From a virus (Duplodnaviria > Caudoviricetes), in IMG/VR virus record IMGVR_UViG_3300025073_000989: a stretch of 64,000 nt of DNA. One strand, given 5' to 3'. Both the position numbers and the translations under genes were made by a program. The notes beneath the pieces were generated by a model. That model saw only the letters and a program-made list of their open reading frames with translations. It searched no databases and had not been told where the DNA came from. This document shows positions 13,593-32,727 of this stretch, piece by piece (within the stretch, counting starts at the first letter, position 1; every line of letters begins with the position of its first letter).

Positions 13593-13621
13593 ATTATAAT
13601 TACTTTCTTATACTTTGTCAA
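13593..13621 (-). promoter_or_regulatory. Consensus sigma70 promoter
   Basis: TTGACA-N17-TATAAT; the -35 overlaps the rmlD-like stop. Confidence 0.8.
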
Positions 13622-14421
13622 GACAGTATAGTTTCTGATAAACTTCTTAACTCAATTAACTGATCCTCCAGTGGAGGAATAACGATATTATTTTTACTAA
13701 CAGATAAAAGTGTCCTGTCGCACATTATACTAGTTGCTTTAGGATTTACCTTAACATTTAAATTATATACTTCAGAAATAAGTTTAACCAAAGCAAACTT
13801 ACTAAAAACTACCGGAGAATATATATGTTGTACACCATTCCAATATAAATTACCATTTATAATAGTAGCACAAACCTTGGCAAATTGCAAACAAGTTATA
13901 CCGTTCCAAAAATGATTTGTATAACCATCAACCTCTTTGTCTTTATTACTTTTTACCCACTCCAATAAAGATTTCTTGTTGTACTTTTCTTCTCCTATAA
14001 TAGAAGTTCTTATAACACAGCAATTATCTGGCTCACCCAAAGATTTAGATCTACCATAAATATCAACTGCATCGTGAAAATCTTTTTCATTATACAAGCC
14101 TTTTACGCCTAAAAAAACGCAATCACTACTTGGATGGATCAGTTTTGCGCCAACAGACTCACAGTGATTTGCAACTACCCATGGCAAGGCAGAATTAACA
14201 AGTATAAAGTCCAAAGGACTTACTTTCTTACGTTGTTTTATAACTCCTATGCAATTTATAACCACATCTCCTTTAATTATAGAATTAAAATTAGTTGTAG
14301 TAGCTTTAGTTGCATCTAGCATTTTCCTTGTTACATCTACAACGTCATAATTTAATGATTTAAAGTAAACAGATACATATCTACCAAGCATCCCATTACT
14401 ACCTAAAACAAAAAGCCTCAT
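13618..14421 (-). CDS. RmlD-like NDP-4-keto-6-deoxyhexose reductase (QnlB/WbvR-like)
   Basis: GSNGMLG, VINCIG, SSDCVF.G, YGRSKSLGE. Confidence 0.88.
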   Translation of the reverse strand: MRLFVLGSNGMLGRYVSVYFKSLNYDVVDVTRKMLDATKATTTNFNSIIKGDVVINCIGVIKQRKKVSPLDFILVNSALPWVVANHCESVGAKLIHPSSDCVFLGVKGLYNEKDFHDAVDIYGRSKSLGEPDNCCVIRTSIIGEEKYNKKSLLEWVKSNKDKEVDGYTNHFWNGITCLQFAKVCATIINGNLYWNGVQHIYSPVVFSKFALVKLISEVYNLNVKVNPKATSIMCDRTLLSVSKNNIVIPPLEDQLIELRSLSETILS

Positions 14422-15407
14422 AACAAAAAACCTCCCCGGTATAATAAACTTTTAAGGGTTTCATAATTACCAATCTCGTATGAAGATGAGTAACTTTCAA
14501 ATGGTACATTTTGCTTATTATCTAAATGTGTGTAGTCTCTATTAATTTTTAAATCCGATTTAATAACGTAGTAATCATCGTCATACACTACGGATCTTGG
14601 TGCCTCATATTCAGAAATAAGTAGCTCATGTACCTTCTCGCCCTCCCTTGCCCCAATTTCTTTTATTTTTGTGTCTTTATTTCCGTAATGATCTATAAGA
14701 ACTTGTGCTAAAGTTTTAATATAAAATGCTGGCATATGCATAACAAAAATCTCTCCACCAACAGAGCATTCAGAGGCTTTAAAAAGCAGAGCAATGGCAT
14801 CTGGCAATGTCATAAAATAACGAGTCATGTCGCCATTAGTTAATGTTATCTCATTATATTTTTTAATTTGATCTATAAATAATGGAACAACACTTCCGTT
14901 AGACCCTAGCACATTACCTGCCCTTATACAAACAAAATCCGTATTATCAGTTAGATTATTAGCTTGTATAGTTATCTTTTCTCCAATGGCTTTAGTAAAT
15001 CCGTACGTATTACAAGGACTTACGGATTTATCTGTAGAAATATCCAAAACCTTCTTTACCTTGTATTTAATTGCTGCATTAACTATATTTGTTGTACCAT
15101 TTACATTTGTTTTTATTGCTTCTTGTGGATGATTTTCGCATACAGGCACATGTTTTAATGCTGCGAGGCAAAAAACATAGTCAACCCCTCTGTCAAAAAC
15201 CCTCTCAACTGCTGAGTAGTCTCTAATATCACCTATTACAAATTCTATACGTGGGTCTTTAAATTTACGTTCCATATTAACTTGAGCAAGCTCTCCCCTT
15301 GAAAATACTATAATTTTTTTTGGATCTTTTTCAAGTAATTGCTTTACAAGTTCATTTCCCCATGATCCTGACGCCCCTGGACAAAAAATATTTTTATCTT
15401 TAAACAT
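14418..15407 (-). CDS. UDP-GlcNAc 4,6-dehydratase(/epimerase), FnlA/CapE/PseB family
   Basis: GASGSWG, AALKHVP, STDK...P.N.YG.TK, R.GNVLGS.GSVVP.F, MTRYFM, GEK.HE. Confidence 0.92.
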   Translation of the reverse strand: MFKDKNIFCPGASGSWGNELVKQLLEKDPKKIIVFSRGELAQVNMERKFKDPRIEFVIGDIRDYSAVERVFDRGVDYVFCLAALKHVPVCENHPQEAIKTNVNGTTNIVNAAIKYKVKKVLDISTDKSVSPCNTYGFTKAIGEKITIQANNLTDNTDFVCIRAGNVLGSNGSVVPLFIDQIKKYNEITLTNGDMTRYFMTLPDAIALLFKASECSVGGEIFVMHMPAFYIKTLAQVLIDHYGNKDTKIKEIGAREGEKVHELLISEYEAPRSVVYDDDYYVIKSDLKINRDYTHLDNKQNVPFESYSSSYEIGNYETLKSLLYRGGFLL

Positions 15408-15419
15408 TATTATTTCTCC

Positions 15420-15896
15420 TTATAATTTAGTAGCCAATAAGACTATTTCATTTAATGACCAGGTAGTATCTCTATGCTCTATAGAGTCTACCGCGAAATT
15501 ATACTTAGTACACATACGCCTTAGTTTCTCCTCGTAGATACCGTGTCTATGATAGTCATATTCGTGCAGATGCTCAGCGTATAGAAACTCTTCTAACTGA
15601 GCTATAGGCCAATCACCTTTGTTATAACTATTAATAGCCGAAACAATACTCGGAGCATACAAAGCTAACTTTCCACCTGACTTTAACATACGACTACACT
15701 CAGAAAAGAAGTGGTCAAACTCATTTTTAGTAAGGTGCTCAATCATATGCTCAGAGAATATTTCATCAATGGAAGCGTCTTCGTAGGTTAACTCTAAGAT
15801 GTTACCAACTACTGTCTCTTCTGTACGTTTAACAGCGTCGATATTAGTGTAGCCTTCTTGGTTTCTTTTTCCACTACCTAAATTTAACTTAATCAT
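15420..15896 (-). CDS. Class I SAM-dependent methyltransferase (type 11-like)
   Basis: KLNLGSG, SEHMIEH, LK.GG.L. Confidence 0.85.
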   Translation of the reverse strand: MIKLNLGSGKRNQEGYTNIDAVKRTEETVVGNILELTYEDASIDEIFSEHMIEHLTKNEFDHFFSECSRMLKSGGKLALYAPSIVSAINSYNKGDWPIAQLEEFLYAEHLHEYDYHRHGIYEEKLRRMCTKYNFAVDSIEHRDTTWSLNEIVLLATKL

Positions 15897-16678
15897 TCCT
15901 CTACCATCTCCTTGGCGTCTGTTGGTTTATTACCACTTTTTCTTTCTACTGAATAATGATGATAGGCTATAGAAGACTTACTCATAGTAAAATGAGCACC
16001 CGCCATACTACATCTATCAAAAAATAGTACGTCTGGGGCGTTAGGACCAGTCACTGTTAAATCCCAGGGGCCGGCTGCTTCCCAAAATCTTCTAGGAATC
16101 AAGTAGGGCATAGTACAACAAGTACCCCATGGGCCTCCGCGCTCCTCTTGTGTCTCTAACTTATCTTCATAAATCTGATTATATATAATATTGAACTTAC
16201 TAATATCAAACTTACCATACTCTGGCATACCACAGTCTGCTTGTACTAGAGCGTCTCCTGGGTAGTAACTTATTAGACTACAATTTACTATGTCATTTAT
16301 ATTAGCGTACTTTGCTAAATTAGTCAACCAATTTTTACCGAAGTACTGGTCGGTGTTTACTAGCCCACAATAATCATTAAGTGTAAATCCGTAGTTAAAC
16401 CCGGCGTTCATCATACCACGTAAATTAGGGACGTAACCTACATTGTAGTTAGTTTCGTAAGGTAAAACTCTTACAAAATTATATTTTGATTGCAGTTCAA
16501 TAAGATACTCTGAGACCTCTTTGGTAGGTCCCCATGTAACTACTATGTAGTCAAAGTTATTAGTGCCAGCATTTTCTATAAGAGACTCAGAAGAAAAGCG
16601 TAGCATCTCTAAAGCTGACGAAACGCAATTAAAAATAGACACTCTAGGCATTAAGAACCCCCTTAAAATAATAACCAA
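15893..16678 (-). CDS. GT-A fold glycosyltransferase (GT2-like)
   Basis: RVSIF..., N.GFNY, LVNTDQYF..NWL, WE..GPW, D..F. Confidence 0.7.
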   Translation of the reverse strand: MVIILRGFLMPRVSIFNCVSSALEMLRFSSESLIENAGTNNFDYIVVTWGPTKEVSEYLIELQSKYNFVRVLPYETNYNVGYVPNLRGMMNAGFNYGFTLNDYCGLVNTDQYFGKNWLTNLAKYANINDIVNCSLISYYPGDALVQADCGMPEYGKFDISKFNIIYNQIYEDKLETQEERGGPWGTCCTMPYLIPRRFWEAAGPWDLTVTGPNAPDVLFFDRCSMAGAHFTMSKSSIAYHHYSVERKSGNKPTDAKEMVEE

Positions 16679-17297
16679 TAATTACTGCGTCTGAAGCATC
16701 CTTGGTACCTAGAGAAAAGAAGATAACATCTGTTATATGCTTGAAAGATTCTAAAGTCATATCTGCCTGCTCATGTTCTTCATACTTATTATCTGCTGTA
16801 GATACCATCCCTGGCCCATCATAATAATTACCAAATGGACAAATGCTTACTAATCCCTTAGTAGCTAGTTGTTGTATCTTAGTAAATGTAGGAAGCATAT
16901 CTTCGTGCTTAACGTGCTCTGGGCCATGAATCCAACATACTAAATCAAAGTCGTTTGTGATTATTACTTTATCTACCTCACGCACATCACCTTTTAATAT
17001 AGGATAGTCTCTACCAGAAAACTTCTGTATGTATGGTTCGTATATTTCAATATATGTAATTTTACTAGCACCATAATTTTTTAAAATTCTAGGCCATTCA
17101 GTGAACATAAGGTCAGTACTACCAGTACCTACTAATAAAATAGAGCTCCCTTTTATGTGTACACAGAAAGATTCAAGAAACTGTACAAAATCTAGCGGTA
17201 CATCATGCGTTAAATCCTTAGCTAACCCATTCAATCTTAAATAAGAAAACCAATCAAACATTATGCCTCCATCAATCGTGGTAGTGGCACTATCCAT
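16644..17297 (-). CDS. Class I SAM-dependent methyltransferase
   Basis: ILLVGTG, IEIYEPY, GDVR, HGPEHV. Confidence 0.7.
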   Translation of the reverse strand: MDSATTTIDGGIMFDWFSYLRLNGLAKDLTHDVPLDFVQFLESFCVHIKGSSILLVGTGSTDLMFTEWPRILKNYGASKITYIEIYEPYIQKFSGRDYPILKGDVREVDKVIITNDFDLVCWIHGPEHVKHEDMLPTFTKIQQLATKGLVSICPFGNYYDGPGMVSTADNKYEEHEQADMTLESFKHITDVIFFSLGTKDASDAVIIGYYFKGVLNA

Positions 17298-18460
17298 GTG
17301 CCTTTGTAATTAGGATTTCTACTTTTTATTTCTTCTATAAAATTATAAGCTGTAACTAAAATATAGTCAGGCTGGTATCCTTCAATGAACGACGAATGTT
17401 TGATTTCAATATGGGAATATGGAGTGAACTTACCTAATTTTAATGGTGAGTCGTCTATAATATAAGGAATATCTTTACTTGTAATTCCAAAATTAGCAAA
17501 TAAAATATTAGCCTGCCCACTGGCACCATAAGCTACTATACGTTTTCTTTGAGAACGGACTTCTTCTAAGAAGTGCCCAACCTCCAAAGTAGACCTCTCA
17601 ACTCCAACTTTAAACTCTGAGACTAGGTCTAATATCTTATCTACTTTTGGATTTACATAAGATAACACATTACTTCTTTCAAAGGCGCAGTTAATACTCC
17701 CGCCATGTATTGTGTTCTTTGAGCACGATACTAGTTTATACCCGTAGTTAGACATTAAATGAGCCAGAGTATCCGCGGTATAATAAAATAGATGCTCATG
17801 ATAGAAAAATGGAAAACATAATTCTTTTAATAAATACTCGAAATCTTGTACTTGAATAATTAGTTTACCCTTATCTGCTAAGAGAACATCGATGCCGACT
17901 ATAACGCTTCTTAAGTCTTCCATATGCGCAAAATTATTAGCAGAGTATATAATATCCATCTCGCCCCAAGAGTTCTTAATATCATAAGCATTTTCTGTAT
18001 CAAAAAAGTCGTTAATTAAAACTACATCTTTGGGAGTGTTTAACTGCGCAGTGTCTGAAGGGTCTACATTTATAAACGTGTGGCCATACTCGGATAGGCG
18101 CTCACCTAGTGGGCAGGAATTGCCGCCAATTTCTAAAATCTGTAAGGGACCACCGCTTTCCTTATGAATAAGTTCTGCTTGAGAATAGAAAAAATCTCTA
18201 AGAGTACTTATGGTATGTGTTTTATAAAAATATTTTCTAAATAGAAACTCTTTAGGAATAAAACACCGCTGATCTAGCTGTGCTATGCCGCAACTCTTAC
18301 ATAGAATAATGTTTAAAGGCAGAAGTTCATCATCCTTAGGGCTAGTTAAAAAATTACCAGCTATAGGACTATTTGCTATGTAGAATATAGACTCTACATT
18401 TTTAGAATTACAGAAATAACAAGTCATCATATTTTCCATTAGTATAAGTTTTGCCTTCAA
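17261..18460 (-). CDS. NDP-sugar C-methyltransferase (TcaB9/NovU family)
   Basis: N-terminal CxxC...CxxC zinc site, LEIGGN, NNFAH, YHEH..Y, HGGS, YGASG, DDSP.K.G. Confidence 0.88.
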   Translation of the reverse strand: MKAKLILMENMMTCYFCNSKNVESIFYIANSPIAGNFLTSPKDDELLPLNIILCKSCGIAQLDQRCFIPKEFLFRKYFYKTHTISTLRDFFYSQAELIHKESGGPLQILEIGGNSCPLGERLSEYGHTFINVDPSDTAQLNTPKDVVLINDFFDTENAYDIKNSWGEMDIIYSANNFAHMEDLRSVIVGIDVLLADKGKLIIQVQDFEYLLKELCFPFFYHEHLFYYTADTLAHLMSNYGYKLVSCSKNTIHGGSINCAFERSNVLSYVNPKVDKILDLVSEFKVGVERSTLEVGHFLEEVRSQRKRIVAYGASGQANILFANFGITSKDIPYIIDDSPLKLGKFTPYSHIEIKHSSFIEGYQPDYILVTAYNFIEEIKSRNPNYKGTWIVPLPRLMEA

Positions 18461-19355
18461 ACACTTCAGCGTCTTCGCTAGCAGTAATTAACAGCAATCC
18501 ATCATAACATTTTACTACGTATTTGTCATTAAAAATCTCTACCACTTCGCCGTATTCTTTATCTTTATAAAAATCTAACATGGTGTCCCATACTTGAGCT
18601 GCCCATATCATTATCTTCTTACCCTTGTAAAAAGTAAAAGCCCCAGGATAAGGAAAAGTCACGGCACGTATTAGATTGTAAATATCAAACACCGAAGTGG
18701 TCCAATCTATCTCCCCGTCCTCTGGAACACGTTTAGAAAAGTAGGAAGGCATACCAACTTGTTTAGTAGGTACTAAATCTCCGTTTAGTAACTTAGGTAT
18801 AGTACGAGATAGCATGTACTTAACTACTACGCTTACTTTATAGTATAGAGTTTCACAAGTATCGGTCTCTCGTATCTCAAATATCTGGTAATCTAATATG
18901 TCGCCTTCGTCTATTCCAGGCACTATGGTAAATAGATTCCATATTAAGCGCTTCTTGCCTTTAATAATAGACCAGTTTAATGGGGAACGGCCTCTTCCTT
19001 TTGGAAGAAACTCAGAGCTACCATGCTGCCCTATAGGATACTCTATAGTACTTAGTATCTCTTGTGAAATTAATCTCTGCCAGCCGCCAAGTAAAAGAAT
19101 ATCAAACTTATTATCTTTAAAATAATCAATATCTTGAGTATCTTTAAAACTATAGGAGTTGGCATAGTATATTTCTATACCTAGCGCATTAGCCAAGTCC
19201 TCGTAGGATACCCAAGTGCTTTCACTTTTATTTTTTATTGCTGTCTCTTTTGAAATGGTTACAATATGTGTAACTTTGATATCTTTACTAAATAAAAACT
19301 TAATTATATCCTTACCTTGTTCTTGTATACCACATAACACTATTTTATTAAGCAT
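18408..19355 (-). CDS. N10-formyl-THF-dependent formyltransferase (ArnA-N/Fmt-like, probably sugar N-formyltransferase)
   Basis: GWQRLI, H.S..LP.GRGRSP.NW, DEGDIL, DG.IDW, IRA...PYPGAF. Confidence 0.88.
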   Translation of the reverse strand: MLNKIVLCGIQEQGKDIIKFLFSKDIKVTHIVTISKETAIKNKSESTWVSYEDLANALGIEIYYANSYSFKDTQDIDYFKDNKFDILLLGGWQRLISQEILSTIEYPIGQHGSSEFLPKGRGRSPLNWSIIKGKKRLIWNLFTIVPGIDEGDILDYQIFEIRETDTCETLYYKVSVVVKYMLSRTIPKLLNGDLVPTKQVGMPSYFSKRVPEDGEIDWTTSVFDIYNLIRAVTFPYPGAFTFYKGKKIMIWAAQVWDTMLDFYKDKEYGEVVEIFNDKYVVKCYDGLLLITASEDAEVFEGKTYTNGKYDDLLFL

Positions 19356-19357
19356 AG

Positions 19358-20284
19358 TTATAACCTCGATAAGGTATTAAACCTCGGGACTTCTAAATAG
19401 TTTACAGTGTTATACTGCTCAATACGGGTATTCTCTGTAGTAAATGCCACAGAACACCCATTAATATCTAAAGTCCTAGTTATATCATAGTTGTAAGCCC
19501 CATTAGGGTAAGAGAATGGAATAAAATTAGTATTTGACATATACTTGATAAACAATATGGATTGTTGGATATCCCTATTTCTATCATCAGGTGCCATTAA
19601 TAATAAATTCTCTGAAGAATATCCGTGACCACCAATTTCCATCCCTGCTTTAGTAAGTTCGAGCACTTCTTCAAGATTTAAATAAAATCCTTCACTAAAT
19701 TTTTTAGTGTCTTTTGTTACAAACTCTTCAAATAGCTCATCTACAATTGTATATTTATCGTTAGTGTATTCTCTAAGAAAATTGGTTATAAAAACCATTT
19801 CTTTAGACCACCAATTAGTTCTAAATTTAGAAACTGAAAAAGTGTCCCATAGTGTATCTTTTTCTTCTTTAGAAAAAAATAACTTGTTCATAATTTTATT
19901 TACAAGCAGTGCCTCACTCTCAACGCGTGAAAGAATAAACTGTATCTTATGAGAATGGATCATAGTCCTATCCAATACCGGACCTCCAGGAATTAAAAAA
20001 GTTCCAGGAACTTTATAAGCAACTAATAGTGGAAGTACATTAGTATAATGTCCTGCTAATCCATCATCAAAAGTCAGTACTGCGTAGTCATGTTCTAAGT
20101 TGTCTATGTTTAAATTGTAGAGCTGTTCACTAGATATAACTTTGTAATTTGTAGTTATATGCATTAATTGTGTTTCAAACTGCTTTACGCTTAGGAAAGA
20201 CTTTAGATCGTATCTTCTTTTATACTTTGGATTTATGTTATCATAGATATCATGATACATAAATATGGTAATTGAGCCATTCAC
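19358..20284 (-). CDS. NodB/polysaccharide deacetylase family (CE4) protein
   Basis: MYH, LTFDDG, EIGGHG, FSYPNG, PRF. Confidence 0.88.
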   Translation of the reverse strand: MNGSITIFMYHDIYDNINPKYKRRYDLKSFLSVKQFETQLMHITTNYKVISSEQLYNLNIDNLEHDYAVLTFDDGLAGHYTNVLPLLVAYKVPGTFLIPGGPVLDRTMIHSHKIQFILSRVESEALLVNKIMNKLFFSKEEKDTLWDTFSVSKFRTNWWSKEMVFITNFLREYTNDKYTIVDELFEEFVTKDTKKFSEGFYLNLEEVLELTKAGMEIGGHGYSSENLLLMAPDDRNRDIQQSILFIKYMSNTNFIPFSYPNGAYNYDITRTLDINGCSVAFTTENTRIEQYNTVNYLEVPRFNTLSRL

Positions 20285-21090
20285 GAGTCGCGCTCCCCCT
20301 CAATGAAATGTGATATTGGGGCATCAAATACGGTGATATGTTGCATACCAAATTGAACGCCTAATATATCATTGAAGTAGTAATCGTCAGCTGATTTATA
20401 TACAGGTCTATCATTAGGATGCCCAAACTCAACACCTTGGCGACCAAAAAAAGCATTACCAATAGGGTACATACCACTCTCAATAAAACGTTCTTTACTA
20501 ATTACACACGGGCCAAATAGGCCTCCTGGTTTAGTGATATCATCTTTAATTGATTCAGAAAAAGCCATCCAATCTTTCCATTGAAATGTTGTGGGGTCTA
20601 CCCCAAAATTGTTACCTAAATAAGTTAGTAGGTTTATCCCGTACATACCACTATCCATCTTACCAGACTCTATTAGTCGGCCACAAGGAATATTTATACC
20701 ATCGTGGTGCTTCAATAAGTTGGCTAACCACCATCTACAAAACCCAAAGTCTGAATTTACAAAACATAAGTTGTCGTAAGTACTTGTTTGGCCTCCATAA
20801 TTATAAGCTCGGTAGACTCTATTTAAATAAAACTCGTTTGGGTCTGGCGCGTTGTACACTGTGTAAGGAATATCTAAAGTAGAAAGTACATCTAGTACCT
20901 CTTCTGTAGCATCGTTAGCAATTATCCTAACACCGACATCCCATCCTGGTACGTTACACAAGTCGCTTTTAAGCTGGTCAGCAATAAAATGTAGATAGTC
21001 TAAAGACTTATATATCAGAGATATTACTTCTATATTATTTTTAATCATATTAGGTCTCTTTATTAAAATAAAAGTTAGGGTACTTAGCAA
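20281..21090 (-). CDS. GT-A fold glycosyltransferase (GT2-like), paralog of 15893..16678
   Basis: RAYNYG, FVNSDF.F..WWL..L, G..P, DD..F. Confidence 0.65.
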   Translation of the reverse strand: MLSTLTFILIKRPNMIKNNIEVISLIYKSLDYLHFIADQLKSDLCNVPGWDVGVRIIANDATEEVLDVLSTLDIPYTVYNAPDPNEFYLNRVYRAYNYGGQTSTYDNLCFVNSDFGFCRWWLANLLKHHDGINIPCGRLIESGKMDSGMYGINLLTYLGNNFGVDPTTFQWKDWMAFSESIKDDITKPGGLFGPCVISKERFIESGMYPIGNAFFGRQGVEFGHPNDRPVYKSADDYYFNDILGVQFGMQHITVFDAPISHFIEGERDS

Positions 21091-21844: not shown

Positions 21845-21845
21845 G

Positions 21846-24752: not shown

Positions 24753-25820
24753 TTACTTTCCTAAAATTATATTTATTACTATATCAGAAACATTCTCCAC
24801 CAAATAATCAGACGGAGGAAACCATCTTATGCTCCTTTTATTTAATATATTAAAAGCATCTAACATGTTTTCATACTTTGTTCCAGTTAAAATAGAAGAG
24901 CCACACTCAATCAGCTCTTGTCTCTCTGTGGACTCTCTTATTATAATAGAATGAATACCAAACAAACAGGTTTCTTCCGTTACTGTGCCCGAGTCAGATA
25001 TTACCATCTTTGAATTTTTCTCTAAATTAACAAAATCAAAAAAACCAAGAGGCTCTGATAATATAACTCTTTCAGAAGTAAAAGTCAACCCAGATCCTAT
25101 TATTTTATCTTTTGTTCTTGGATGTACTGAAAAAAGCACCTTGTATGTTTTTGATATGGTATTTATTGCATTCACAATATTAGATAATACTTCCAGATTA
25201 TCTACATTCTCTGCTCTATGGGCAGTTACTAATACATAGGTTTGTTTATTTAGAGCCAACCTATCCAGTATATCACTACTGTCTATATCTTTTTTATAAT
25301 AGTTTAGGACTTCTAATATAGGATTACCAATCTTAAATACTTTATTTTTATGATAACCCTCATTTAAAAGATTTTGTTTGCTATTATCAGTGTAAGGTAG
25401 ATTATATGTAGATAAACTATCAATTATCTTTCTATTGCCTTCCTCTGGAACTAGATCATTAAAACATCTATTCCCTGCCTCCATATGTATTATTGGTATA
25501 CCGTTCCTATTGGCTAATATAGAAAGTAATCCTGAATTAGTATCACCTAAAATTAATATTTTATCAGGCTTTTCTTTTTTTAGTATCTCTTCAAATTCTA
25601 TCAGCGCGTTTCCTAAAAATTTACTAAACCCACTTTGTGGTTTAAATATATAATCTGGATTCCTTATTCTTAACTCATCAAAGAAAACAGTAGATAAACT
25701 AGCGGTGTAATTCTGGTTGGTAAAAACTAGAACGTGGTCTACTAACTTATCTAATTTGTTTATTATAACAGACAACCTTATTAGTTCTGGACGAGTTCCA
25801 GCTATAGTAAGAACTCTCAT
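24753..25820 (-). CDS. Non-hydrolysing UDP-HexNAc 2-epimerase (FnlC/WbjD/WbvD-like)
   Basis: GTRPELIRLS, GDTNS, HMEAG.R, PEE.NR, HR.EN, HPRT, SDSG...EE, TERQE. Confidence 0.92.
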   Translation of the reverse strand: MRVLTIAGTRPELIRLSVIINKLDKLVDHVLVFTNQNYTASLSTVFFDELRIRNPDYIFKPQSGFSKFLGNALIEFEEILKKEKPDKILILGDTNSGLLSILANRNGIPIIHMEAGNRCFNDLVPEEGNRKIIDSLSTYNLPYTDNSKQNLLNEGYHKNKVFKIGNPILEVLNYYKKDIDSSDILDRLALNKQTYVLVTAHRAENVDNLEVLSNIVNAINTISKTYKVLFSVHPRTKDKIIGSGLTFTSERVILSEPLGFFDFVNLEKNSKMVISDSGTVTEETCLFGIHSIIIRESTERQELIECGSSILTGTKYENMLDAFNILNKRSIRWFPPSDYLVENVSDIVINIILGK

Positions 25821-26557
25821 ACAACACTATCTCTTATAACAAAATCTTTTATTGTCTCTGTTTGATTCCAAATTAGTCCTGTGTATGTCTTGTCATAGAA
25901 AGCAACAGTACAGCAAGTCCCATTTATCCTACCATCATGGAAAGTCCTGGATATACAAGGAACTAGCCCCTCCCAATTAAATTCTTTAAATGCTGCCTGC
26001 ATCGCCCAGTCCCAACCATAAGCATTGGCATACTTTCTAGCCAATACATCATCATACCAATACTTACCATAACACCCTTTCCAGTTTTCTTTAAAAGCAC
26101 ACCAACCAAGCCCATGAAAAGCTTTTACTTTTGTTATACCCTCGTAATCTTCCCCACCACTTGCCCAGTTAAAAAGACCATAAGACATATAAGCCAATGG
26201 GCTATCTTTAAAATTATTATAATACCAATCAGATAAATAGAACACGTCTGGAGAAAGAATAAAATCATCTTCTAAGTGCACATTAAAATCTGTCCCTAGC
26301 TCATTAAAAACATAACTCAGAACGTTATACATATTATCCCTAGCTCCGCTATGAGAACGATGTCCACTTGAATTCTTCTTGCGCAGAATTGTAATAGGTA
26401 GACTGCTTTCCTCCAAAAGCTTAATACATTCTGGACTAGCTTCAGCGCTGCATACTATTTTATAGTCTGTTAAATCATACTTTGATAAATAACCTAAAAA
26501 ATTCGCTAGATAATTTGGTCTGTACCCAACAGGAAATGTAATTGTCTTCATACGCAT
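25817..26557 (-). CDS. GT-A glycosyltransferase, GT13 (GnT-I)-like
   Basis: LEDD..LSPD.F, GLGW, WDW, P.ISRT..G pattern. Confidence 0.65.
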   Translation of the reverse strand: MRMKTITFPVGYRPNYLANFLGYLSKYDLTDYKIVCSAEASPECIKLLEESSLPITILRKKNSSGHRSHSGARDNMYNVLSYVFNELGTDFNVHLEDDFILSPDVFYLSDWYYNNFKDSPLAYMSYGLFNWASGGEDYEGITKVKAFHGLGWCAFKENWKGCYGKYWYDDVLARKYANAYGWDWAMQAAFKEFNWEGLVPCISRTFHDGRINGTCCTVAFYDKTYTGLIWNQTETIKDFVIRDSVV

Positions 26558-26564
26558 TAACTCC

Positions 26565-27053
26565 TTATTTCTTTCTTAGCTTCATTATAAAATTAGAACC
26601 TTCTTCTGTATATGATTCCTCCTCAAAACCAAAAGGTTTTAATATTCGCAGTAACCACGCCCTATCAAACATAACATAGTGAAAATTGGTTGAATAATCC
26701 TGTCCACCAAACATATGAAATGACACAAACTCAGCATTTCCATTAGTAAGATAATAGGCTGCAGCCCATTTTATATTAGGAGTTCTTATTTCCAATGTTC
26801 CGAATCTAGTTAGTACCCGCGCCCATTCCTTTAAAAAACCCTTTATGTCTTCAATTGTAAAGTGTTCTATTATATCGCTTGCTAGAATATAATCAAATTC
26901 ACCATCTTTAAACATCTGTAAATCCCTAACATCTCCTATTAGATCTACAACGTCCAAATTTGTCCTAGAATCAAAATTTATACATTCGCTACCTAGAGGA
27001 TACTCTTTGTATACACGTTCGCCACAGCCCAAATTAAGCGTCTTCTTTGGCAT
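26565..27053 (-). CDS. Class I SAM-dependent methyltransferase (paralog of 15420..15896)
   Basis: LNLGCG, SDIIEH, EW.RVL...G.L.I.TP. Confidence 0.85.
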   Translation of the reverse strand: MPKKTLNLGCGERVYKEYPLGSECINFDSRTNLDVVDLIGDVRDLQMFKDGEFDYILASDIIEHFTIEDIKGFLKEWARVLTRFGTLEIRTPNIKWAAAYYLTNGNAEFVSFHMFGGQDYSTNFHYVMFDRAWLLRILKPFGFEEESYTEEGSNFIMKLRKK

Positions 27054-27067
27054 TATACTTCTCCAAA

Positions 27068-28666
27068 TTATAAAAGATTATTGTGTTTAATATACTTTAA
27101 ATTCCCACAATCCCAAATACGATCCCAGCCTTGTAATTGCCTATTTTCCCATTCAGTTAATTCCTTAATATCTTTTTTGTTTTTTCTTAAAGCAAATCTA
27201 TGAGTGCGTTTTTTGTTTTTGATATACCAATAATTAGGCTTAGTATTACCAACAAGACTAAACCCGATTTTTTCGTAAAGACTTCCATCAGACCACCTTC
27301 TATCAGCATAAGAAAAAAGCTCCTTCCACTCGTAGCTTCGTTCGAAATACTTGAGTAATTTAGAAGCTATTCCAATAACCCTAGTATTTAGTTTTGAACA
27401 AAAACGATGTAGTTCCCAAGTACCTTCTTTATTTTTAGACCCCTTAGCTATAGAGGATTTAGAAAAAGTCATAACGGAAACTAGTTCTTCATTATAAAAA
27501 GCTCCTAGTTTTATAGAAGAACCTGAACCGTACCCCTGAAGATGATTTTGTTCGCAGAAAAACTTAGCTTGGTTGGCTGAAATTTCATTAATAGTGCATT
27601 TACGAGCATATACTTTATTTAATAAAGTAGAATTTAATAAATTTTGCAGTCTTGATAATAGTATATCTTTTCTATAAACCCACTCATCCTCGAAAATAGT
27701 TATTAACCTGTATCCTTTTTCTAGGCACATATTTAATTTATTTAGATGGTAGTTTTTATCTTTTCCATTTAATTCGGAATGCCAATAAAGTCCGCAATAT
27801 TCGATAGCTATCTTTTTTTCTGGAATTACTATATCTAGTTCGTATGGTTTTATACTATTTTTATCGTTTTTATTAAATATTATATTTTTATTAAATAAAA
27901 ACTCCCTCAATAATAACTCCACATTAGATACTCCAGACCCACTACACTCAGTACACCTTGAATTCTTATGTTTCCAATTATTGTATCTAACAAAGTAGTC
28001 ATGATTATTTGGGCACATAAGATGCAATAAAGAATTAGAATTTAAGTATTCCCCAACTAATCTATAACCATAACCTTCAATATCCAATTTAACTACAGAG
28101 CCACCAAAGCTTATACCACCATTACAATAAGGGCAACGCTTTCCTTGCATCCAATTATGATAAGATGAGCAATACACATGCCCAGCATCACATTGTATTT
28201 TCAAATCTTCAAAAGTATTTCTATAGTCATCTGATAACAATTGATAATTTTCTAATGATAATGCTTTTTTTATATCATCCAAAGTTTTTTTCACTTTACC
28301 AGAACAATAAGGGCATCTTATACCGTCATTAAAGTGATCAATCCTTATGCTATGCCTATGTCCATTATTACAAATATAGTTAATTTTATTCTTACTGTTA
28401 ATATAATTAGTATCTATTACATTGTAACCAGCCTCATTAAAAATAAGCCTAACTTCCTCTATAGTATATTTTGCATTTCCTGCACATTTAGAACATCTAT
28501 GTTTTCTTTTAGTATTCCAGTATTCCCATTTAGTTTTAAATATATGACCAAAAGGACAAACTGTAACTAATTCAGATTTAGAATTAATATACTCTTTAGT
28601 TAAAAGTATATAATTTTCTTTTAATAATGCAGCTCTAACCTTATCATATGTTATTTTTATAGACAT
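27068..28666 (-). CDS. Free-standing homing-type endonuclease: zinc-ribbon repeats plus the same C-terminal nuclease as 7963..9636
   Basis: Repeated Y.LL...Y......C..GH...W......RC..C; YELDIVIPEKKIAIEYCGLYWH, ITIFEDEW, RIWDCG. Confidence 0.8.
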   Translation of the reverse strand: MSIKITYDKVRAALLKENYILLTKEYINSKSELVTVCPFGHIFKTKWEYWNTKRKHRCSKCAGNAKYTIEEVRLIFNEAGYNVIDTNYINSKNKINYICNNGHRHSIRIDHFNDGIRCPYCSGKVKKTLDDIKKALSLENYQLLSDDYRNTFEDLKIQCDAGHVYCSSYHNWMQGKRCPYCNGGISFGGSVVKLDIEGYGYRLVGEYLNSNSLLHLMCPNNHDYFVRYNNWKHKNSRCTECSGSGVSNVELLLREFLFNKNIIFNKNDKNSIKPYELDIVIPEKKIAIEYCGLYWHSELNGKDKNYHLNKLNMCLEKGYRLITIFEDEWVYRKDILLSRLQNLLNSTLLNKVYARKCTINEISANQAKFFCEQNHLQGYGSGSSIKLGAFYNEELVSVMTFSKSSIAKGSKNKEGTWELHRFCSKLNTRVIGIASKLLKYFERSYEWKELFSYADRRWSDGSLYEKIGFSLVGNTKPNYWYIKNKKRTHRFALRKNKKDIKELTEWENRQLQGWDRIWDCGNLKYIKHNNLL

Positions 28667-29791
28667 TTATATTATTTCTATCTCATATATTATTCTACTT
28701 GCTATATGTTCCAATGTAAAATTATTTTTTATGTACTCTTTTAATAGCTTACCTTTATATTTAGCTTCTTCATTATTATAATATACATGTTTCATTAAAT
28801 CAGAAGAATGCTTCAAATTTGGTTCTGCCCATAGCATTTTGCCAGTATACCACGGAGACCAACTCATACCAAAAACAGGGGTAAGACTGTAATCAACAAG
28901 GTAACTATTTTCTGGTTTAGCATAGTCTGTGACACCCCCATACCCTGTTACAATTATGGGATTTCCACAAGCCCCAGAAGTAAAAGGAGACAATCCCCAA
29001 CCTTCCCCTCGATCCAAAGAAACATAACAATCCCCCCTTGCATGTAATCCATGTATCTCGTCCTCAGTTAGCATGTCTGATATAAATAACACCTTAGCAT
29101 GTGGATTTTTCATAGGCATTCCATCTTTTACTCTTTTTATTGTATCTCTTATAGCCTGTTTTTCTGGTTCTGAGTAGTTACTTCTATACGTTTTCATAAC
29201 TAAAGCTACATTTTCGTTATTTTGAAAAGCATGCCAATAAGCCTTTAATAGTGCTACCGGATGTTTCCTCTCAACAAATTGAAATATATCATAAAAAACA
29301 AAAGTATCTTTACCTACACCTTTAATATTATACGGTTCAATTTTATCAAAAACACTCATATTTATACCATGTGGCACAACCCCTATGGGAATAGTAACAC
29401 CACTATCTTTAAACACATCTTTATTCCAAGAACAACCAACTAATACTTTATCAGCGGTTTTGTTTATATACTTAGGCCAATCAGGATGTAATTCTGATGT
29501 TTCCCATATAGTATAGCCAATGTTGATTTTTTCTTCTTCCATAAATTTAGACCAAAACTCAGGAGTAGTATGAACAATAACTATGTTGTAATCAATATCT
29601 TTACCAATTAACGTATTTAAAACTTCTCCCTCTTCTCCAAAATCTGGTCTAATGTCTTCAAATGAAATTGGGCTTACTGTTATAGGGATCCCAGCATTGT
29701 GTAACGCTAGAATATTGCCCCTATTGGCTTTTGCATAACCACTAGAATCGAGACATGGACCTATATATTTTATACCAACAATCTCAGCCAT
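28667..29791 (-). CDS. Glycosyltransferase family 4 (GT-B)
   Basis: SGYA.A.R, YTIWET, VVPHG, ERK...L..AY, GEGWGL.P, W.EP. Confidence 0.88.
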   Translation of the reverse strand: MAEIVGIKYIGPCLDSSGYAKANRGNILALHNAGIPITVSPISFEDIRPDFGEEGEVLNTLIGKDIDYNIVIVHTTPEFWSKFMEEEKINIGYTIWETSELHPDWPKYINKTADKVLVGCSWNKDVFKDSGVTIPIGVVPHGINMSVFDKIEPYNIKGVGKDTFVFYDIFQFVERKHPVALLKAYWHAFQNNENVALVMKTYRSNYSEPEKQAIRDTIKRVKDGMPMKNPHAKVLFISDMLTEDEIHGLHARGDCYVSLDRGEGWGLSPFTSGACGNPIIVTGYGGVTDYAKPENSYLVDYSLTPVFGMSWSPWYTGKMLWAEPNLKHSSDLMKHVYYNNEEAKYKGKLLKEYIKNNFTLEHIASRIIYEIEII

Positions 29792-29882
29792 AAATAAATT
29801 TATCCTTTATTTTATACATTTGTTATAAATAACTCTTTGATATCCTCATTATCTTTTATTGCTAATCGTATACTAAACCTGA

Positions 29883-30113
29883 TTAACCCTGTGTCAAAAG
29901 CAGCTCTATCATGCACTCACGTAACATATAGACCACCTCGTCATCGTCCATATCACGATTAATCGTCGTCCCTCGCCCGAGGTACTTGTACCAACTTACG
30001 CGAATATCACGCCACGCGAAATTGAACTCCTGCTCTTCATCATCGTTCCAAGAATACGCATGTGCTTTGAATTTTTCACCATTGAATTGTACTCCTGTGT
30101 TGCTATCGGAGTC
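29883..30113 (-). pseudogene. C-terminal part of a conserved-looking phage hypothetical gene (NTG...AYSW...FNFAWRDIRVSWYKYLGRG)
   Basis: 77 open codons directly after the mini-element, no own start; more GC-rich than flanks. Confidence 0.6.
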
Positions 30114-30117
30114 GTCG

Positions 30118-30293
30118 GCTTAAACTAAGGCATCGCTTTTCAGCGGCCGGCTAAAACGTCGTGTTTTAGGCCTTAGTAGCGATTTTCCTGTTTCAACCCG
30201 ACCCCTATTTTCGGGAATCGCTTCCCTATCGTCAAGTGGTTTTGCCGGTCCACAGGCTTTAGTTTCTCTCTTATTAAGAGATAAACTTCCCGC
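30118..30293 (-). ncRNA. Putative TnpB omegaRNA (reRNA) scaffold
   Basis: GCGGGAA..AAAGCCTGTGGA..GTTGAAACAGGAA pattern typical of tnpB 3' ends; helices CCTGT/ACAGG, GCGATT/AATCGC, ACTAAGGC/GCCTTAGT, CTAAAAC/GTTTTAG, CGCT-GAAA-AGCG. Confidence 0.55.
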
Positions 30294-30355
30294 CTGGCTA
30301 AGAGATACCAACCAGGTCGGCGGGCCGTAGCACATCCCTGTGCTACTTCAATGCT
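30121..30355 (-). mobile_element. 235-bp non-autonomous element (left end + TnpB omegaRNA-like right end, no ORF), flanked by AGC at both junctions
   Basis: Left 63 bp identical to 45-107; removal restores GGA CAG CCG ACG (G-Q-P-T) in the interrupted gene. Confidence 0.65.
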
Positions 30356-30395
30356 GTCCAAAACACATTTGACCAAGTTCAGGTTTATATTTCAC
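30354..30395 (-). pseudogene. 5' fragment (VKYKPELGQMCFGQ) of the gene interrupted by the mini-element
   Basis: GTG start with GGAGG RBS; the frame stops immediately inside the insert. Confidence 0.6.
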
Positions 30396-30567
30396 CAAAA
30401 TCCTCCAACAATTGACGGACAAGAAGAATCTCACCGTCATCCGATCCTCCGCCATATGCATCATCAATATTACCAGCAGCATAATCGTTAACTATGAATT
30501 CATCATCATCGCACCAGCATCTTTTTGCGGCCAAAACTTCAAGTTTTTCTTTTAATCCTTGAATCAT
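30385..30567 (-). CDS. Hypothetical acidic protein (60 aa, MIQGLKE...); the track start at 30642 is probably too long
   Basis: AAGGAG RBS before the ATG at 30567; the promoter lies within the longer ORF. Confidence 0.7.
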   Translation of the reverse strand: MIQGLKEKLEVLAAKRCWCDDDEFIVNDYAAGNIDDAYGGGSDDGEILLVRQLLEDFGEI

Positions 30568-30609
30568 AAAATCACTCCTTATATAATATTTTACGCCCAT
30601 TATACCTAT

Positions 30610-30638
30610 AATATAAGCACTAAAATTTAATTCGTCAA
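30610..30638 (-). promoter_or_regulatory. Sigma70-type promoter
   Basis: TTGACG-N17-TATATT. Confidence 0.6.
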
Positions 30639-30663
30639 CCAAATAACTTTTATTAGGTTTGTT

Positions 30664-31416
30664 TTATTCCAATTTTAAAGCTTCTGCTTTTACCTTCTTT
30701 CGGCCACAGCAACGATTCTTTGCTTCTGGACAATACCCCAACATCTCACATCTACTATCAACCTTATTAAAGACGCATGGAAGTCTTTCTCTACAAATCT
30801 TTAGAATTTCTTTTGCCAGATTCCTTATTTCCCATTGTGCTGCTGTACAAAGGCGCAAACTAAGAAAATGAGCTAGACTAACGCAATTCATAGTCATAAC
30901 AATACGGGTAGTTACCCCGTTCGGCATAACATAACGAGCATCCTCGCTTGGAATATTTAAAGATTTTAGTTTATTATAAGATTTTTGAATCTCAGCTAAA
31001 GTAGTAAGATATTCACCATAAGCCTCATTATTTTTTTCAATTGATGGCGGAACAACATAATCCTCAATATTAAAATCTCCAGCATTACTTACATAACGTT
31101 GTGATTGTTGAGAGTAGCTTGCTAAACGATGTCTGACTAGTTGATGGCTCAAAGCGCGAGAGACTCCGTCAACAGCAAATGTAAACTTTACGTGTTCAAA
31201 TACTGATGTATGACCTGAAGTATGTAGATGTCTTAGTAGATTATCAATCTCTTTTTCAGTAGATGGCTCCTTTTTTTCAAGATCAATAACCGACACTGAT
31301 CCGTCTACATTTTCTTGCCACATATCTCCAGTCCAACCATCTGCATAACACTGCCTAGCTGATGCAAATATTAATTCTTTAGCGTTCGGGGTCATTGATA
31401 GTAGTTTTACTCTCAT
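30664..31416 (-). CDS. thyX: Flavin-dependent thymidylate synthase
   Basis: GH.SVFEH, SHQLVRHRLASYSQQSQRY, EDARYVMP, R.C..AQWEIR. Confidence 0.95.
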   Translation of the reverse strand: MRVKLLSMTPNAKELIFASARQCYADGWTGDMWQENVDGSVSVIDLEKKEPSTEKEIDNLLRHLHTSGHTSVFEHVKFTFAVDGVSRALSHQLVRHRLASYSQQSQRYVSNAGDFNIEDYVVPPSIEKNNEAYGEYLTTLAEIQKSYNKLKSLNIPSEDARYVMPNGVTTRIVMTMNCVSLAHFLSLRLCTAAQWEIRNLAKEILKICRERLPCVFNKVDSRCEMLGYCPEAKNRCCGRKKVKAEALKLE

Positions 31417-31440
31417 AGGTAATTCTCCTTAATATGGGCC

Positions 31441-32727
31441 CTAAAAAGACTCAGTAATTATTGTTTTATCGGCTACTGGTTTTTCCAAATCAAAGGTAGA
31501 AACCCCATTTAGTTTATTTACCTCTTCATCAAATAAATTAACCCACCGCTTCCCTATAGCCCCCTGCCAATCCATTTCTTTTCTAATCCAAGTATGGGCA
31601 TTCTCTGCTCTGCGGGTGGCCTCTTCTCTATTATTATATACTTGTAGCAGCTTATCAACCAAATCATCTACATCCACTAAAGGGCGTATTACCTCATTAT
31701 CATGCGGTAGGATTGTGAATAGACTTGAACTAGTACCACTTTTTGCAAGATAGCCCCTAGCCTCAGTAATGTTTTCTACCATTGCGGTATTGGCTGGCAT
31801 AATAACAGGAGTCTTTGTGGCCATAGACTCTATAAATGAAAGGCCAAAACCTTCGCCTAAACAAGTACTTACAACACAGTCACTTGCATTATACAACATA
31901 TTAACTACATCTCTTGGATAACCCTGGTTAGGTCCAAAATTTTCTGGAAATATAACATCATCCATTATATTAAAACCATAGGCTTTACATACCTCTGGCA
32001 AGTTCCACCCCTGATCAACTTTTGCCATGTGAAGGTACAAAACTGACTCCGGTACATGTTTTCTAAACTCACTAAAAGCCTGTATAGTTCTTGGAATATC
32101 TTTTCTTTGTTGATTCCTATTAACGTTTGTAATAATAAACTTGTCTGCATGTTTTCCAAAATATTGTGACCTAAAAGATTTAGTCTTTTCTTCATCTAAA
32201 ACAAAAAACTCATTTATATTAACACCGTGTGGTATAACTTCTACATTACCAACACTAGGAAATGCTTTTTTTGCCTCAGTTTTTCCAAATTCTGAATAAG
32301 CCACTAATCTATCAACTGGAGAAACATTTTTAATCCATTGTTCTTTAGGAGTACCGTCTACTGGAAAATAACAAATACTTCTATAAGGACGACCTTTACT
32401 TTTAAGGTGTCCAACTAATTCTGGGATAAAATCCATAATAAATGTATCTTGAAGTAAAAATAAAATATCAAAATCATCTCTGTGCGCCATTATATTTACA
32501 CATTTTTTTTTGCCATAAGGATCCTTTTCTGGATTAGTTCCAGTCGGCCATACACGATATGGAAATACATGTGGATCCCCCCAGTAATTTATTCCAAGAA
32601 TATCAATATCATACCTTCCTGTTTTATATAACGCCTCAAAAATGTTTCTACTTACAGTACCAAAGCCTGTCGCACAAGTAGGGCTATCACAATACGCCAA
32701 CACTTTAATCTTTTTTCCCATAAACAT
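31441..32727 (-). CDS. Glycosyltransferase family 4 (GT-B)
   Basis: DSP...TGFG.V, IPHGV, NVNRNQ.RKD.P, YNASD, GEGFGL..IE.MA..TPVI. Confidence 0.88.
   Translation of the reverse strand: MFMGKKIKVLAYCDSPTCATGFGTVSRNIFEALYKTGRYDIDILGINYWGDPHVFPYRVWPTGTNPEKDPYGKKKCVNIMAHRDDFDILFLLQDTFIMDFIPELVGHLKSKGRPYRSICYFPVDGTPKEQWIKNVSPVDRLVAYSEFGKTEAKKAFPSVGNVEVIPHGVNINEFFVLDEEKTKSFRSQYFGKHADKFIITNVNRNQQRKDIPRTIQAFSEFRKHVPESVLYLHMAKVDQGWNLPEVCKAYGFNIMDDVIFPENFGPNQGYPRDVVNMLYNASDCVVSTCLGEGFGLSFIESMATKTPVIMPANTAMVENITEARGYLAKSGTSSSLFTILPHDNEVIRPLVDVDDLVDKLLQVYNNREEATRRAENAHTWIRKEMDWQGAIGKRWVNLFDEEVNKLNGVSTFDLEKPVADKTIITESF

Follow-up and report, generated by a model that had tools for sequence, protein, structure and literature searches.

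A conserved glycosyltransferase pair heads a hypervariable glycan-gene island in a clade of jumbo phages

We describe a block of genes for glycan synthesis, at positions 13618-32727, in a 64,000-nucleotide stretch of DNA (the window) that corresponds to the minus strand of positions 203342-267341 of the 268,764-bp IMG/VR virus record IMGVR_UViG_3300025073_000989 (CheckV completeness, 100%). The block starts with two paralogous GT-B glycosyltransferases (GTs), GT4a and GT4b, and in related phages this pair precedes a set of genes that changes from genome to genome. That a GT4 pair conserved throughout precedes a hypervariable island is the main structural fact of the analysis and was absent from an earlier interpretation of the window made from its letters by a model (the sequence-only reading). 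We assign a probability of about one half to the view that the island is a phage-encoded cytoplasmic glycan assembly line whose product is attached to the phage's own virion proteins. A wider, joint proposal is put forward tentatively, as somewhat less probable: that jumbo phages of a clade common worldwide dress their virions in complex glycans like those of giant viruses, differing between strains and including C-methylated, N-formylated and O-methylated 6-deoxy-amino sugars, made by an indispensable, intein-invaded GT4 pair and an O-antigen-like cassette that together form a particle serotype system. The novelty lies in the conserved GT4 pair, with inteins in relatives, joined to an O-antigen-like hypervariable cassette island; glycosylation systems of phages and giant viruses are already known, and comparable large glycan clusters have been described in jumbo cyanophages.

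In agreement with the sequence-only reading, the DNA belongs to a jumbo phage and not to a bacterial O-antigen locus, because the 268-kb virus record carries replication genes together with PHROG virion and baseplate proteins; the very large proteins encoded beyond 43 kb of the window match PHROG families of the latter kinds.

The conserved GT4 pair and the variable island

A search of IMG/VR with a GT4a alignment retrieved 80 loci on contigs of up to 298 kb, and the island genes of 72 of these loci were clustered. The loci share a syntenic module in the order clamp, RecA, DnaB, primase, SSB, DnaJ, RuvC, PD-(D/E)XK nuclease, GT4a, an optional gene (the slot gene), GT4b and variable island, followed, where the contig reaches that far, by a KdsC-like haloacid dehalogenase (HAD) protein and/or the clamp loader and PolA. 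The synteny in related jumbo phages considered in the sequence-only reading was thus found, the block being one version of an island present in at least 72 related contigs. In every case the island starts with the GT4 pair, at a fixed place after the PD-(D/E)XK nuclease gene. What follows is highly diverse: clustering of the 551 island proteins from these loci gives 146 families, of which 83 are singletons, and bounded islands hold from 2 to 25 genes, with that of the window the largest (25 open reading frames (ORFs)). At one extreme, locus L064 has the GT4 pair alone. Locus L002 adds a GDP-mannose dehydratase, a DegT aminotransferase, a UDP-sugar dehydrogenase, a HAD-nucleotidyltransferase fusion and a TylF-type methyltransferase, and locus L055 a DegT aminotransferase, a PglD-like acetyltransferase and two GT2 enzymes. 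Among the 72 loci, the genes for the C-methyltransferase, the formyltransferase, the deacetylase and two SAM methyltransferases, MTa and MTb, are unique to the window genome, as are two small ORFs. Such hypervariable gene content behind conserved flanks fits an exposed structure under diversifying selection.

The pair itself is strikingly constant. GT4a is found in 72 loci with a median identity to the window protein of 63% (47-71% across the clade), against medians in the same loci of 54% for GT4b, 48% for RecA, 45% for primase and 44% for DnaB, a contrast with the neighbours that is somewhat inflated by the retrieval of the loci through GT4a motifs. GT4b is present in all 45 loci that reach at least 4 kb past GT4a, and directly adjoins it in 24. 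The EX7E motif of GT4a is intact in the window protein (E292...E300); in GT4b its second Glu is replaced by Thr in the window genome and is Glu in the consensus. Inteins with LAGLIDADG endonucleases interrupt GT4a in L073 (10001-12448) and GT4b in L031 (12078-14318) and L064 (11278-13455). Among the best 150 representatives of the GT4a family at 50% identity, 16 give matches in two or three stretches and are 768-1212 aa long, roughly double or triple length, a pattern that would fit further intein insertions. To our knowledge, intein insertions in glycosyltransferases are unusual. Their presence in the GT4 genes suggests a well-conserved, important gene. A pair more conserved than RecA and DnaB, its inteins and the at least 146 island families together mark an important, experimentally approachable function, whatever its target.

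In public data the GT4a family comprises 1055 clusters at 90% identity, so that its bearers are very abundant uncultured phages; with 50% identity and E<=1e-30 the number of clusters is 1248. AlphaFold2 models of GT4a and GT4b (pLDDT 87.8 and 94.2) both have as their best PDB match in Foldseek the chlorovirus NY-2A protein B736L (3oy2; E 7e-22 and 2e-20, respectively), at 14-18% identity and a template-modelling (TM) score of ~0.7. The E-value of this match is better than that of the next by ~4 orders of magnitude for GT4a and 5-6 for GT4b, the next PDB matches being BshA, MshA, GlgM, PimB' and PglA.

A similar arrangement was seen in a 205-kb contig of another jumbo-phage lineage (L115:8147-12405), in which GT9, GT4a-like and GT4b-like genes are followed by an island of methyltransferase, epimerase, acetyltransferase and DegT genes; the GT genes there are immediately preceded by genes for very large structural-like proteins and for a volactin-type actin. 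A GT4 pair with an island therefore exists outside the clade studied here.

Gene inventory and a putative pathway

Genes were called with Pfam and NCBIfam, and further proteins through ESM-Atlas features or structure. From the GT4a end to the RmlD-like reductase, the block and its terminal promoter read as follows (SAM, S-adenosylmethionine).

31441-32727, minus strand: GT4a, retaining GT-B glycosyltransferase (Pfam Glycos_transf_1 2.9e-13, GT4-conflict 1.5e-7)
30664-31416, minus strand: canonical ThyX thymidylate synthase, not a glycan gene (Pfam Thy1 7e-66, 222 bits; RHR...S...SQR motif)
30120-30642, minus strand: two small ORFs (85 and 71 aa; no Pfam match, singletons in the island clustering)
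28667-29791, minus strand: GT4b, second GT-B glycosyltransferase and paralogue of GT4a (weak Glycos_transf_1, 8.7e-6)
27068-28666, minus strand: homing-endonuclease-like mobile ORF (Pfam zinc ribbons, Vsr-like nuclease, Mom-like C-terminal domain)
26565-27053, minus strand: MTc, small SAM methyltransferase (Pfam Methyltransf_11/23)
25817-26557, minus strand: GnT-I/MGAT2-like GT-A glycosyltransferase (ESM-Atlas feature score 0.98 to phage clusters with GNT-I/MGAT2; no Pfam match; EDD motif invariant in 8 orthologues)
24753-25820, minus strand: WecB-type non-hydrolysing UDP-N-acetylglucosamine (UDP-GlcNAc) 2-epimerase (Pfam Epimerase_2 1e-83; TIGR00236 251 bits, above cut-off; family in 10 loci)
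24167-24739, minus strand: DUF4254-like protein (resemblance to DUF4254 clusters in ESM-Atlas features, score 0.90, taken only as a lead)
23319-24164, minus strand: GT32-type glycosyltransferase (Pfam Gly_transf_sug 2.6e-8; DFD motif invariant in 8 orthologues)
22491-23318, minus strand: GT2 glycosyltransferase with a C-terminal Glyco_transf_7C region (Pfam 1.8e-10 and 3.6e-5; orthologues 52-61% identical)
21846-22460, minus strand: MTb, SAM methyltransferase (Pfam Methyltransf_25/11/23 ~1e-10; singleton among the 72 loci)
21050-21844, minus strand: GT17 glycosyltransferase (Pfam Glyco_transf_17 8.5e-26, 91 bits; invariant D-x-D motif)
20281-21090, minus strand: GT2-fold (GT-A) glycosyltransferase (ESM-Atlas feature 0.99, structure TM 0.86 to GT2 clusters; no Pfam match)
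19358-20284, minus strand: polysaccharide deacetylase family enzyme, a de-N-acetylase (Pfam Polysacc_deac_1 6.6e-15; weak PgaB matches; singleton)
18408-19355, minus strand: ArnA-like sugar N-formyltransferase with N and C domains (Pfam; NCBIfam formyltransferase 1.9e-46; singleton)
17261-18460, minus strand: nucleoside-diphosphate-sugar C-methyltransferase with zinc-binding, SAM and C-terminal domains (Pfam Methyltransf_13/23/14; singleton)
16644-17297, minus strand: 217-aa protein, unconfirmed as a methyltransferase (no Pfam match at E 0.1)
15893-16678, minus strand: probable GT2-like glycosyltransferase, a weak call (Pfam Glycos_transf_2 0.0048, 17 bits, below cut-off; orthologue in L004, 63% identical)
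15420-15896, minus strand: MTa, small SAM methyltransferase (Pfam Methyltransf_11 2.7e-10; singleton)
14418-15407, minus strand: UDP-GlcNAc 4,6-dehydratase, FnlA/CapE/PseB type (Pfam Polysacc_synt_2 1.4e-92)
13618-14421, minus strand: RmlD-like 4-keto reductase, the last island gene (Pfam RmlD_sub_bind 1.3e-19; orthologue in L004, 67% identical)
13593-13621, minus strand: perfect sigma70-type promoter TTGACA-17-TATAAT (12/12 match), where the island ends and the next unit begins

The inventory agrees in most respects with the sequence-only reading. All ORFs of at least 80 aa in 13618-32727 (22 genes plus three small ORFs) lie on the minus strand, as does every sizeable ORF of the window, so the contiguous, co-oriented block that it described stands. 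Its sugar-nucleotide pathway is recovered by Pfam and NCBIfam as the 4,6-dehydratase, the RmlD-like reductase and the WecB-type 2-epimerase, and its formyltransferase and deacetylase by Pfam. It had counted about nine glycosyltransferases, with a list that itself sums to eight; we find eight (GT17, GT32, GT2+7C, GT2-fold, GnT-I-like GT-A, a weak GT2 and two GT4), the weak GT2 included, and all GT1 and GT2 Pfam matches of the genome fall within the block. Of its five methyltransferases, four are supported by Pfam, one of them the sugar C-methyltransferase; a possible fifth, at 16644-17297, has no significant match, its best PDB sequence match being a SAM methyltransferase at E ~1.

Several assignments merit comment. 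The DFD, D-x-D and EDD motifs that are invariant among orthologues of the GT32, GT17 and GnT-I-like enzymes are metal-binding motifs. The 4,6-dehydratase matches the NCBIfam models PseB (1.2e-85) and FnlA (9.5e-77), each under the equivalog cut-off. For the formyltransferase the ArnA model (1.7e-42) beats Fmt (3.8e-34). The MTc family occurs in 33 of the 72 loci, mostly directly after GT4b, and is the third most widespread island gene. The DUF4254-like protein, which has neither a Pfam nor a PDB sequence match, is present in nine loci at 65-68% identity. Phage homologues of the GT17 enzyme belong to cyanophages and to a 642-kb uncultured phage.

From these families a pathway can be proposed. 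The WecB-type epimerase would yield UDP-N-acetylmannosamine, and the dehydratase and reductase would yield UDP-2-acetamido-2,6-dideoxy-L-hexose, with the C-methyltransferase possibly acting on the 4-keto intermediate. Candidates for all three enzyme types of the set for a UDP-linked L-6-deoxy-N-acetylhexosamine (HexNAc) are present, the dehydratase scoring below both equivalog cut-offs, the reductase being only RmlD-like and the 2-epimerase lying apart from these two genes and occurring also in relatives without them. The deacetylase and formyltransferase, which are neighbours, would most simply exchange an N-acetyl for an N-formyl group, because a formyltransferase is present yet the complete genome has no aminotransferase (no match to DegT, PF01041). 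GT4a and GT4b would place the first sugars on a conserved phage acceptor from common host nucleotide sugars (compare L064, which has the pair only), the variable GT-A enzymes, six in the window, would extend and branch the chain, and methyl, C-methyl and N-formyl steps would cap it, with the small methyltransferases O-methylating the glycan. The end product would be a surface glycan that differs from strain to strain, carried by capsid, tail or fibre proteins and built without a lipid carrier or export. Whatever its target, the island is a source of soluble enzymes for rare sugars.

Candidate targets of the glycan

The case for a virion target rests in part on smaller phages. GT4a homologues were found by tblastn in 9 of 50,697 phage records. 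In Mae-JY09 a single small gene separates the homologue from the major capsid gene that precedes it; in phiPsal1 the order is capsid, GT4, SAM methyltransferase, GT2, neck, and in S-CBS4 it is portal, one gene, GT4, galactosyltransferase, SAM methyltransferase, protease, capsid. TJE1 and four metagenomic lineages carry the GT4 gene at most 5 kb upstream of terminase/portal genes, in most cases with GT2 and methyltransferase genes, and their sugar-nucleotide genes likewise lie just upstream of the terminase, portal and capsid genes.

Virion glycosylation by soluble phage enzymes has precedents. In mycobacteriophages, Che8 gp108-110 and Corndog gp35-38 glycosylate virions (Freeman et al. 2023, as summarised in PMC12363180 and PMC11256854), and Corndog gp38 and Che8 gp110 are reported in the former summary to be essential for capsid glycosylation (PMC12363180). 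According to these summaries, soluble phage GTs and a methyltransferase modify capsid and tail-tube proteins in the cytoplasm; the window likewise encodes soluble GTs and methyltransferases, a likeness drawn from genes alone. The Corndog order is portal, methyltransferase, three GTs, two small genes, major head gene, so that its GT genes lie between portal and major head genes, a layout akin to that of the GT4a homologues of S-CBS4, phiPsal1 and Mae-JY09 and unlike that of the window. The mycobacteriophage systems as summarised have 3-4 genes and no sugar-nucleotide pathway, whereas that of the window has ~20 genes, is hypervariable and sits in a replication module.

Chloroviruses and mimiviruses (PBCV-1 A064R/A546L, NY-2A B736L, Megavirinae; PMC9614988) have their own soluble GTs, sugar methyltransferases and pathways to UDP-GlcNAc-derived 6-deoxy-HexNAc, as in the window. 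Soluble virus GTs, an own nucleotide-sugar pathway and sugar methyltransferases, the features of the giant-virus systems with which the sequence-only reading compared the block, are therefore present, although these are viruses of eukaryotes and the likeness of their GTs to those of the window is the B736L structure match at 14-18% identity.

A further parallel comes from bacterial adhesins. The paralogous GT-B pair GtfA/GtfB initiates a cytoplasmic O-glycan on serine-rich repeat adhesins, which soluble GT-A and GT-B enzymes then extend without a lipid carrier. GT4a and GT4b may be compared with it by resemblance only, as a paralogous GT-B pair with soluble extenders.

Several observations weigh against a virion target. 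The evidence for virions as the target is contextual, and the context is mixed: of 13 informative settings of the GT4 family, 8 have packaging or head genes close by, which in genomes of 30-80 kb is only modestly above chance, and the remaining five are replication-type, jumbo-phage or ambiguous. In the clade itself the island sits inside a replication/recombination module, in the window between PD-(D/E)XK/RuvC/primase and clamp loader/PolA. Ser/Thr-rich acceptor tracts were found nowhere in the proteome. Compared by blastp with the 551 island proteins, Che8 gp108-110 and Corndog gp35-38 have no match to proteins of the window, the only matches being marginal (E ~1e-4) and to GT-A families of relatives. 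Nor is the structural match decisive: B736L itself has no established acceptor (PMC9614988), and the DNA glycosyltransferases of T4 and RB69 likewise match 3oy2 in HHpred (PMC6024577). Finally, solubility is shared by the peripheral GT2 and GT4 enzymes with which bacteria build O-antigen, and these too lack membrane segments.

The sequence-only reading had proposed virion glycosylation with Ser/Thr-rich proteins at 43-64 kb as acceptors. Virions are still the best-fitting target, given soluble enzymes and no known route to DNA, but these specific acceptors are unsupported. Their Ser+Thr content is 18-22%, where the genome averages 14%, an enrichment that is not acceptor evidence because it is mild, usual for fibre and baseplate proteins and lacks tracts.

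If the glycan is indeed borne by the virion, natural phage particles would carry variable 'serotypes' like bacterial O-antigens, with a bearing on phage adsorption, stability, grazing, adhesion to mucus and particles and antibody recognition in therapy, and the giant-virus style of autonomous glycosylation would extend to bacteriophages.

The best-surviving alternative, which we nevertheless regard as unlikely, is remodelling of the host surface, in which soluble phage enzymes would add sugars, on the cytoplasmic side of the membrane, to an undecaprenyl-linked intermediate or another glycoconjugate of the host. The host's own flippase, polymerase and ligase would export the product, and the altered O-antigen, capsule or wall glycan would keep other phages from superinfecting the cell. 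Iyer et al. read the 15-gene glycan clusters of jumbo cyanophages, which show the same polymorphism between relatives, as host-surface (O-antigen/capsule) diversification (PMC7824862). These clusters, such as that of P-SSM2, have ~15 genes with epimerase/dehydratases, nucleotidyltransferases and several GT families and are polymorphic like the island of the window; they belong to another phage lineage, the island of the window being anchored by the conserved GT4 pair, and their host-surface role is an interpretation without experiment (PMC7824862). The enzyme types of the window (FnlA/PseB-like, WecB, GT2, GT4, KdsC-like) are those of O-antigen loci, and Pfam places GT4a in its 'GT4 in conflict systems' family.

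Bacterial loci for O-antigen or capsule (Wzx/Wzy, ABC) indeed share the enzyme families, the combination of nucleotide-sugar enzymes with several GTs and the hypervariable content between conserved flanks, but they nearly always have an initiating phosphoglycosyltransferase, flippase, polymerase and ligase, and none of these is found in the 72 islands or eight genome records. The flippase (PF01943) and Wzy/WaaL (PF04932) families are absent from the eight records, three of them 100% complete. Of the initiating transferases, PF02397 is absent from the window genome and seven relatives, and PF00953 from the window genome. The absence of flippase, polymerase and lipid-carrier transferase stated in the sequence-only reading was thus upheld by genome-wide searches, and a Kyte-Doolittle scan agreed with it that the block's ORFs have no membrane segments. 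By the same scan the genome encodes no polytopic membrane protein, the maximum being three hydrophobic segments in small proteins outside the block, and none of the 551 island proteins has three or more. An ABC permease is equally lacking among the genome and island proteins by hydrophobicity, PF01061 itself not having been searched. GtrABC seroconversion rests on membrane proteins, and the genome encodes no polytopic protein of that kind, the GtrA Pfam family itself not having been searched. An identity of GT4a of 47-71% clade-wide is hard to square with acceptors as varied as host glycans; strong conservation across so diverse a clade is more in keeping with an acceptor that is itself conserved in the phages. 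The GT4a homologues of small phages, moreover, lie inside head-gene clusters and not in lysogeny modules.

We give little weight to a second alternative, that the enzymes release an oligosaccharide, or glycosylate a small molecule or a host protein, to aid takeover and not to build a structural glycan. In its favour, the nearest solved structures to GT4a after B736L are GT4 enzymes that act on small molecules (BshA, MshA and the sucrose-phosphate and trehalose synthases), the GT32 (Gly_transf_sug) Pfam family also includes protein-glycosylating toxins, and the same genome encodes a SemiSWEET sugar transporter (1023-1355). Up to eight variable GTs with capping enzymes, however, fit a macromolecule-bound polymer or oligosaccharide better than a metabolite, the island has no acceptor-forming pathway for a small molecule, and the head-module placement of GT4a homologues in small phages does not fit.

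The least favoured explanation, and in our judgement an improbable one, is hypermodification of DNA, by which GT4a, GT4b and the island would glycosylate a modified base of the phage genome and so escape restriction, as T-even phages and RB69 do. It needed an explicit test because of the gene in the slot between the two GT4 genes. Pyle et al. take a GT-B gene in a thymidylate synthase neighbourhood as a marker of pre-replicative DNA glycosylation, and a thymidylate-synthase-like gene lies between the two GT4 genes in the window genome and 26 related loci; ThyA homologues can produce hydroxymethyl- or 5-hydroxy-pyrimidines (PMC13326640). The pair sits inside a replication and nucleotide-metabolism module, beside nuclease, RuvC, primase, helicase and RecA, and inteins, which are typical of DNA-metabolism genes, occur in both GT4s of relatives. 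In T-even phages, RB69/DLP3 and metavirome 5-hydroxymethylcytosine clusters (PMC13326640; bioRxiv 10.1101/2023.12.21.572611), a GT-B gene likewise lies in a replication/nucleotide module beside a thymidylate-synthase-like gene.

The slot holds a canonical ThyX in the window and six relatives, a very divergent ThyA-like protein (36-47 bits) in nine, a member of a ~190-aa family in 11 and otherwise nothing (examples in relatives are L006:11289-12086, L015:11278-11850 and L070:12553-14148). Within the ~190-aa family the L049 member is weakly ThyX-like, and some members have a LAGLIDADG insert. In the window genome the sole thymidylate synthase is the canonical ThyX (222 bits), with the ThyX motif kept, and a search of the complete 268,764-bp genome for the ThyA family PF00303 gave nothing at E<=1, in line with the sequence-only reading, which saw no hydroxymethylase that could create a DNA acceptor. 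In the complete relatives G002 and G003 the slot is empty, ThyX is absent and a canonical ThyA (362-405 bits) is encoded elsewhere, yet the GT pair is kept. Thymidylate synthase matches never exceed one per record, as if an ordinary enzyme had been replaced by a non-orthologous one, and the GT4 pair is conserved whichever synthase is present. The C5-methylase (PF00145) and Tet/JBP (PF12851) families are absent from the window genome and seven relatives, the tRNA-guanine transglycosylase family (PF01702) has no match in the complete genome, and five complete cultured phages with GT4a homologues have neither ThyA nor Tet families. Known DNA-glycosylation systems differ in having a hydroxymethylase, 5-hydroxycytosine synthase or methylase/Tet, which the window genome and complete relatives lack, and the machinery of the window is far larger: eight GTs with methyl, C-methyl and formyl steps exceed known DNA glycans, which have up to three sugars. 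T4 AGT and BGT fall outside the top 50 Foldseek PDB matches of GT4a and GT4b, though GT-B enzymes all resemble one another.

Surroundings of the block and minor observations

On its low-coordinate side the block is bordered by genes for RNase HII, SemiSWEET, ribonucleotide reductase, dUTPase, PolA and the clamp loader, and on its high-coordinate side by those for the PD-(D/E)XK nuclease, RuvC, DnaJ, SSB, primase, DnaB, RecA and the beta clamp. Megablast gave no near-DNA match to GenBank phages, and PolA is at most 32% identical to that of any GenBank phage; there is therefore no close cultured relative. An attempt to infer the host from the FnlA/PseB-like gene was dropped, its best bacterial matches (Psychrobacillus and others) being ~50% identical and uninformative on the host.

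Just past the terminal promoter of the island, the next transcription unit encodes:

12612-13130, minus strand: KdsC-like HAD phosphatase (Pfam Hydrolase_3; TIGR01670 9e-14, below cut-off)

The KdsC-like gene adjoins the clamp loader in five loci, and its membership of the glycan system is uncertain.

The ORF at 27068-28666 belongs to a four-copy paralogous family of ~500-560 aa proteins (window 27068-28666 and 7963-9636; genome 191639-193249 and 129459-130976), and its homologues are scattered over many positions in related loci. Because of these paralogues and scattered positions we take it as a mobile insertion and not a pathway gene. The zinc-ribbon/Vsr-like/Mom-like family is probably a homing-endonuclease-like mobile gene, and its Mom-like domain was rejected as a clue to DNA modification on the same grounds.

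The SemiSWEET (MtN3/PQ-loop) sugar transporter at 1023-1355 (110 aa) is among the few membrane proteins of the genome and could affect sugar supply. Other genes of the window encode an RlaP-type nucleotidyltransferase (1535-2362), an NT5C-type deoxyribonucleotidase (2867-3430) and a full DnaJ (34452-35237). Between primase and DnaB, a 166-aa ORF (37372-37872) has a Cas12f1-like TNB domain (TnpB-type zinc finger region, 3e-20); a homologue sits inside the GT4 slot of L077.

An intergenic k-mer search for a phage-specific promoter in common with structural genes gave nothing above chance. After the two small ORFs, a non-coding gap of 328 bp (29792-30119) contains a sigma70-like site (10/12 match) at 29897-29870. 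The 268-kb genome has three perfect sigma70 consensus promoters, each on the coding strand: that at window 13593-13621, one at ~2940 of the window and one at genome ~110201, which lies ~100 nt upstream of an ORF at 110297-110893.

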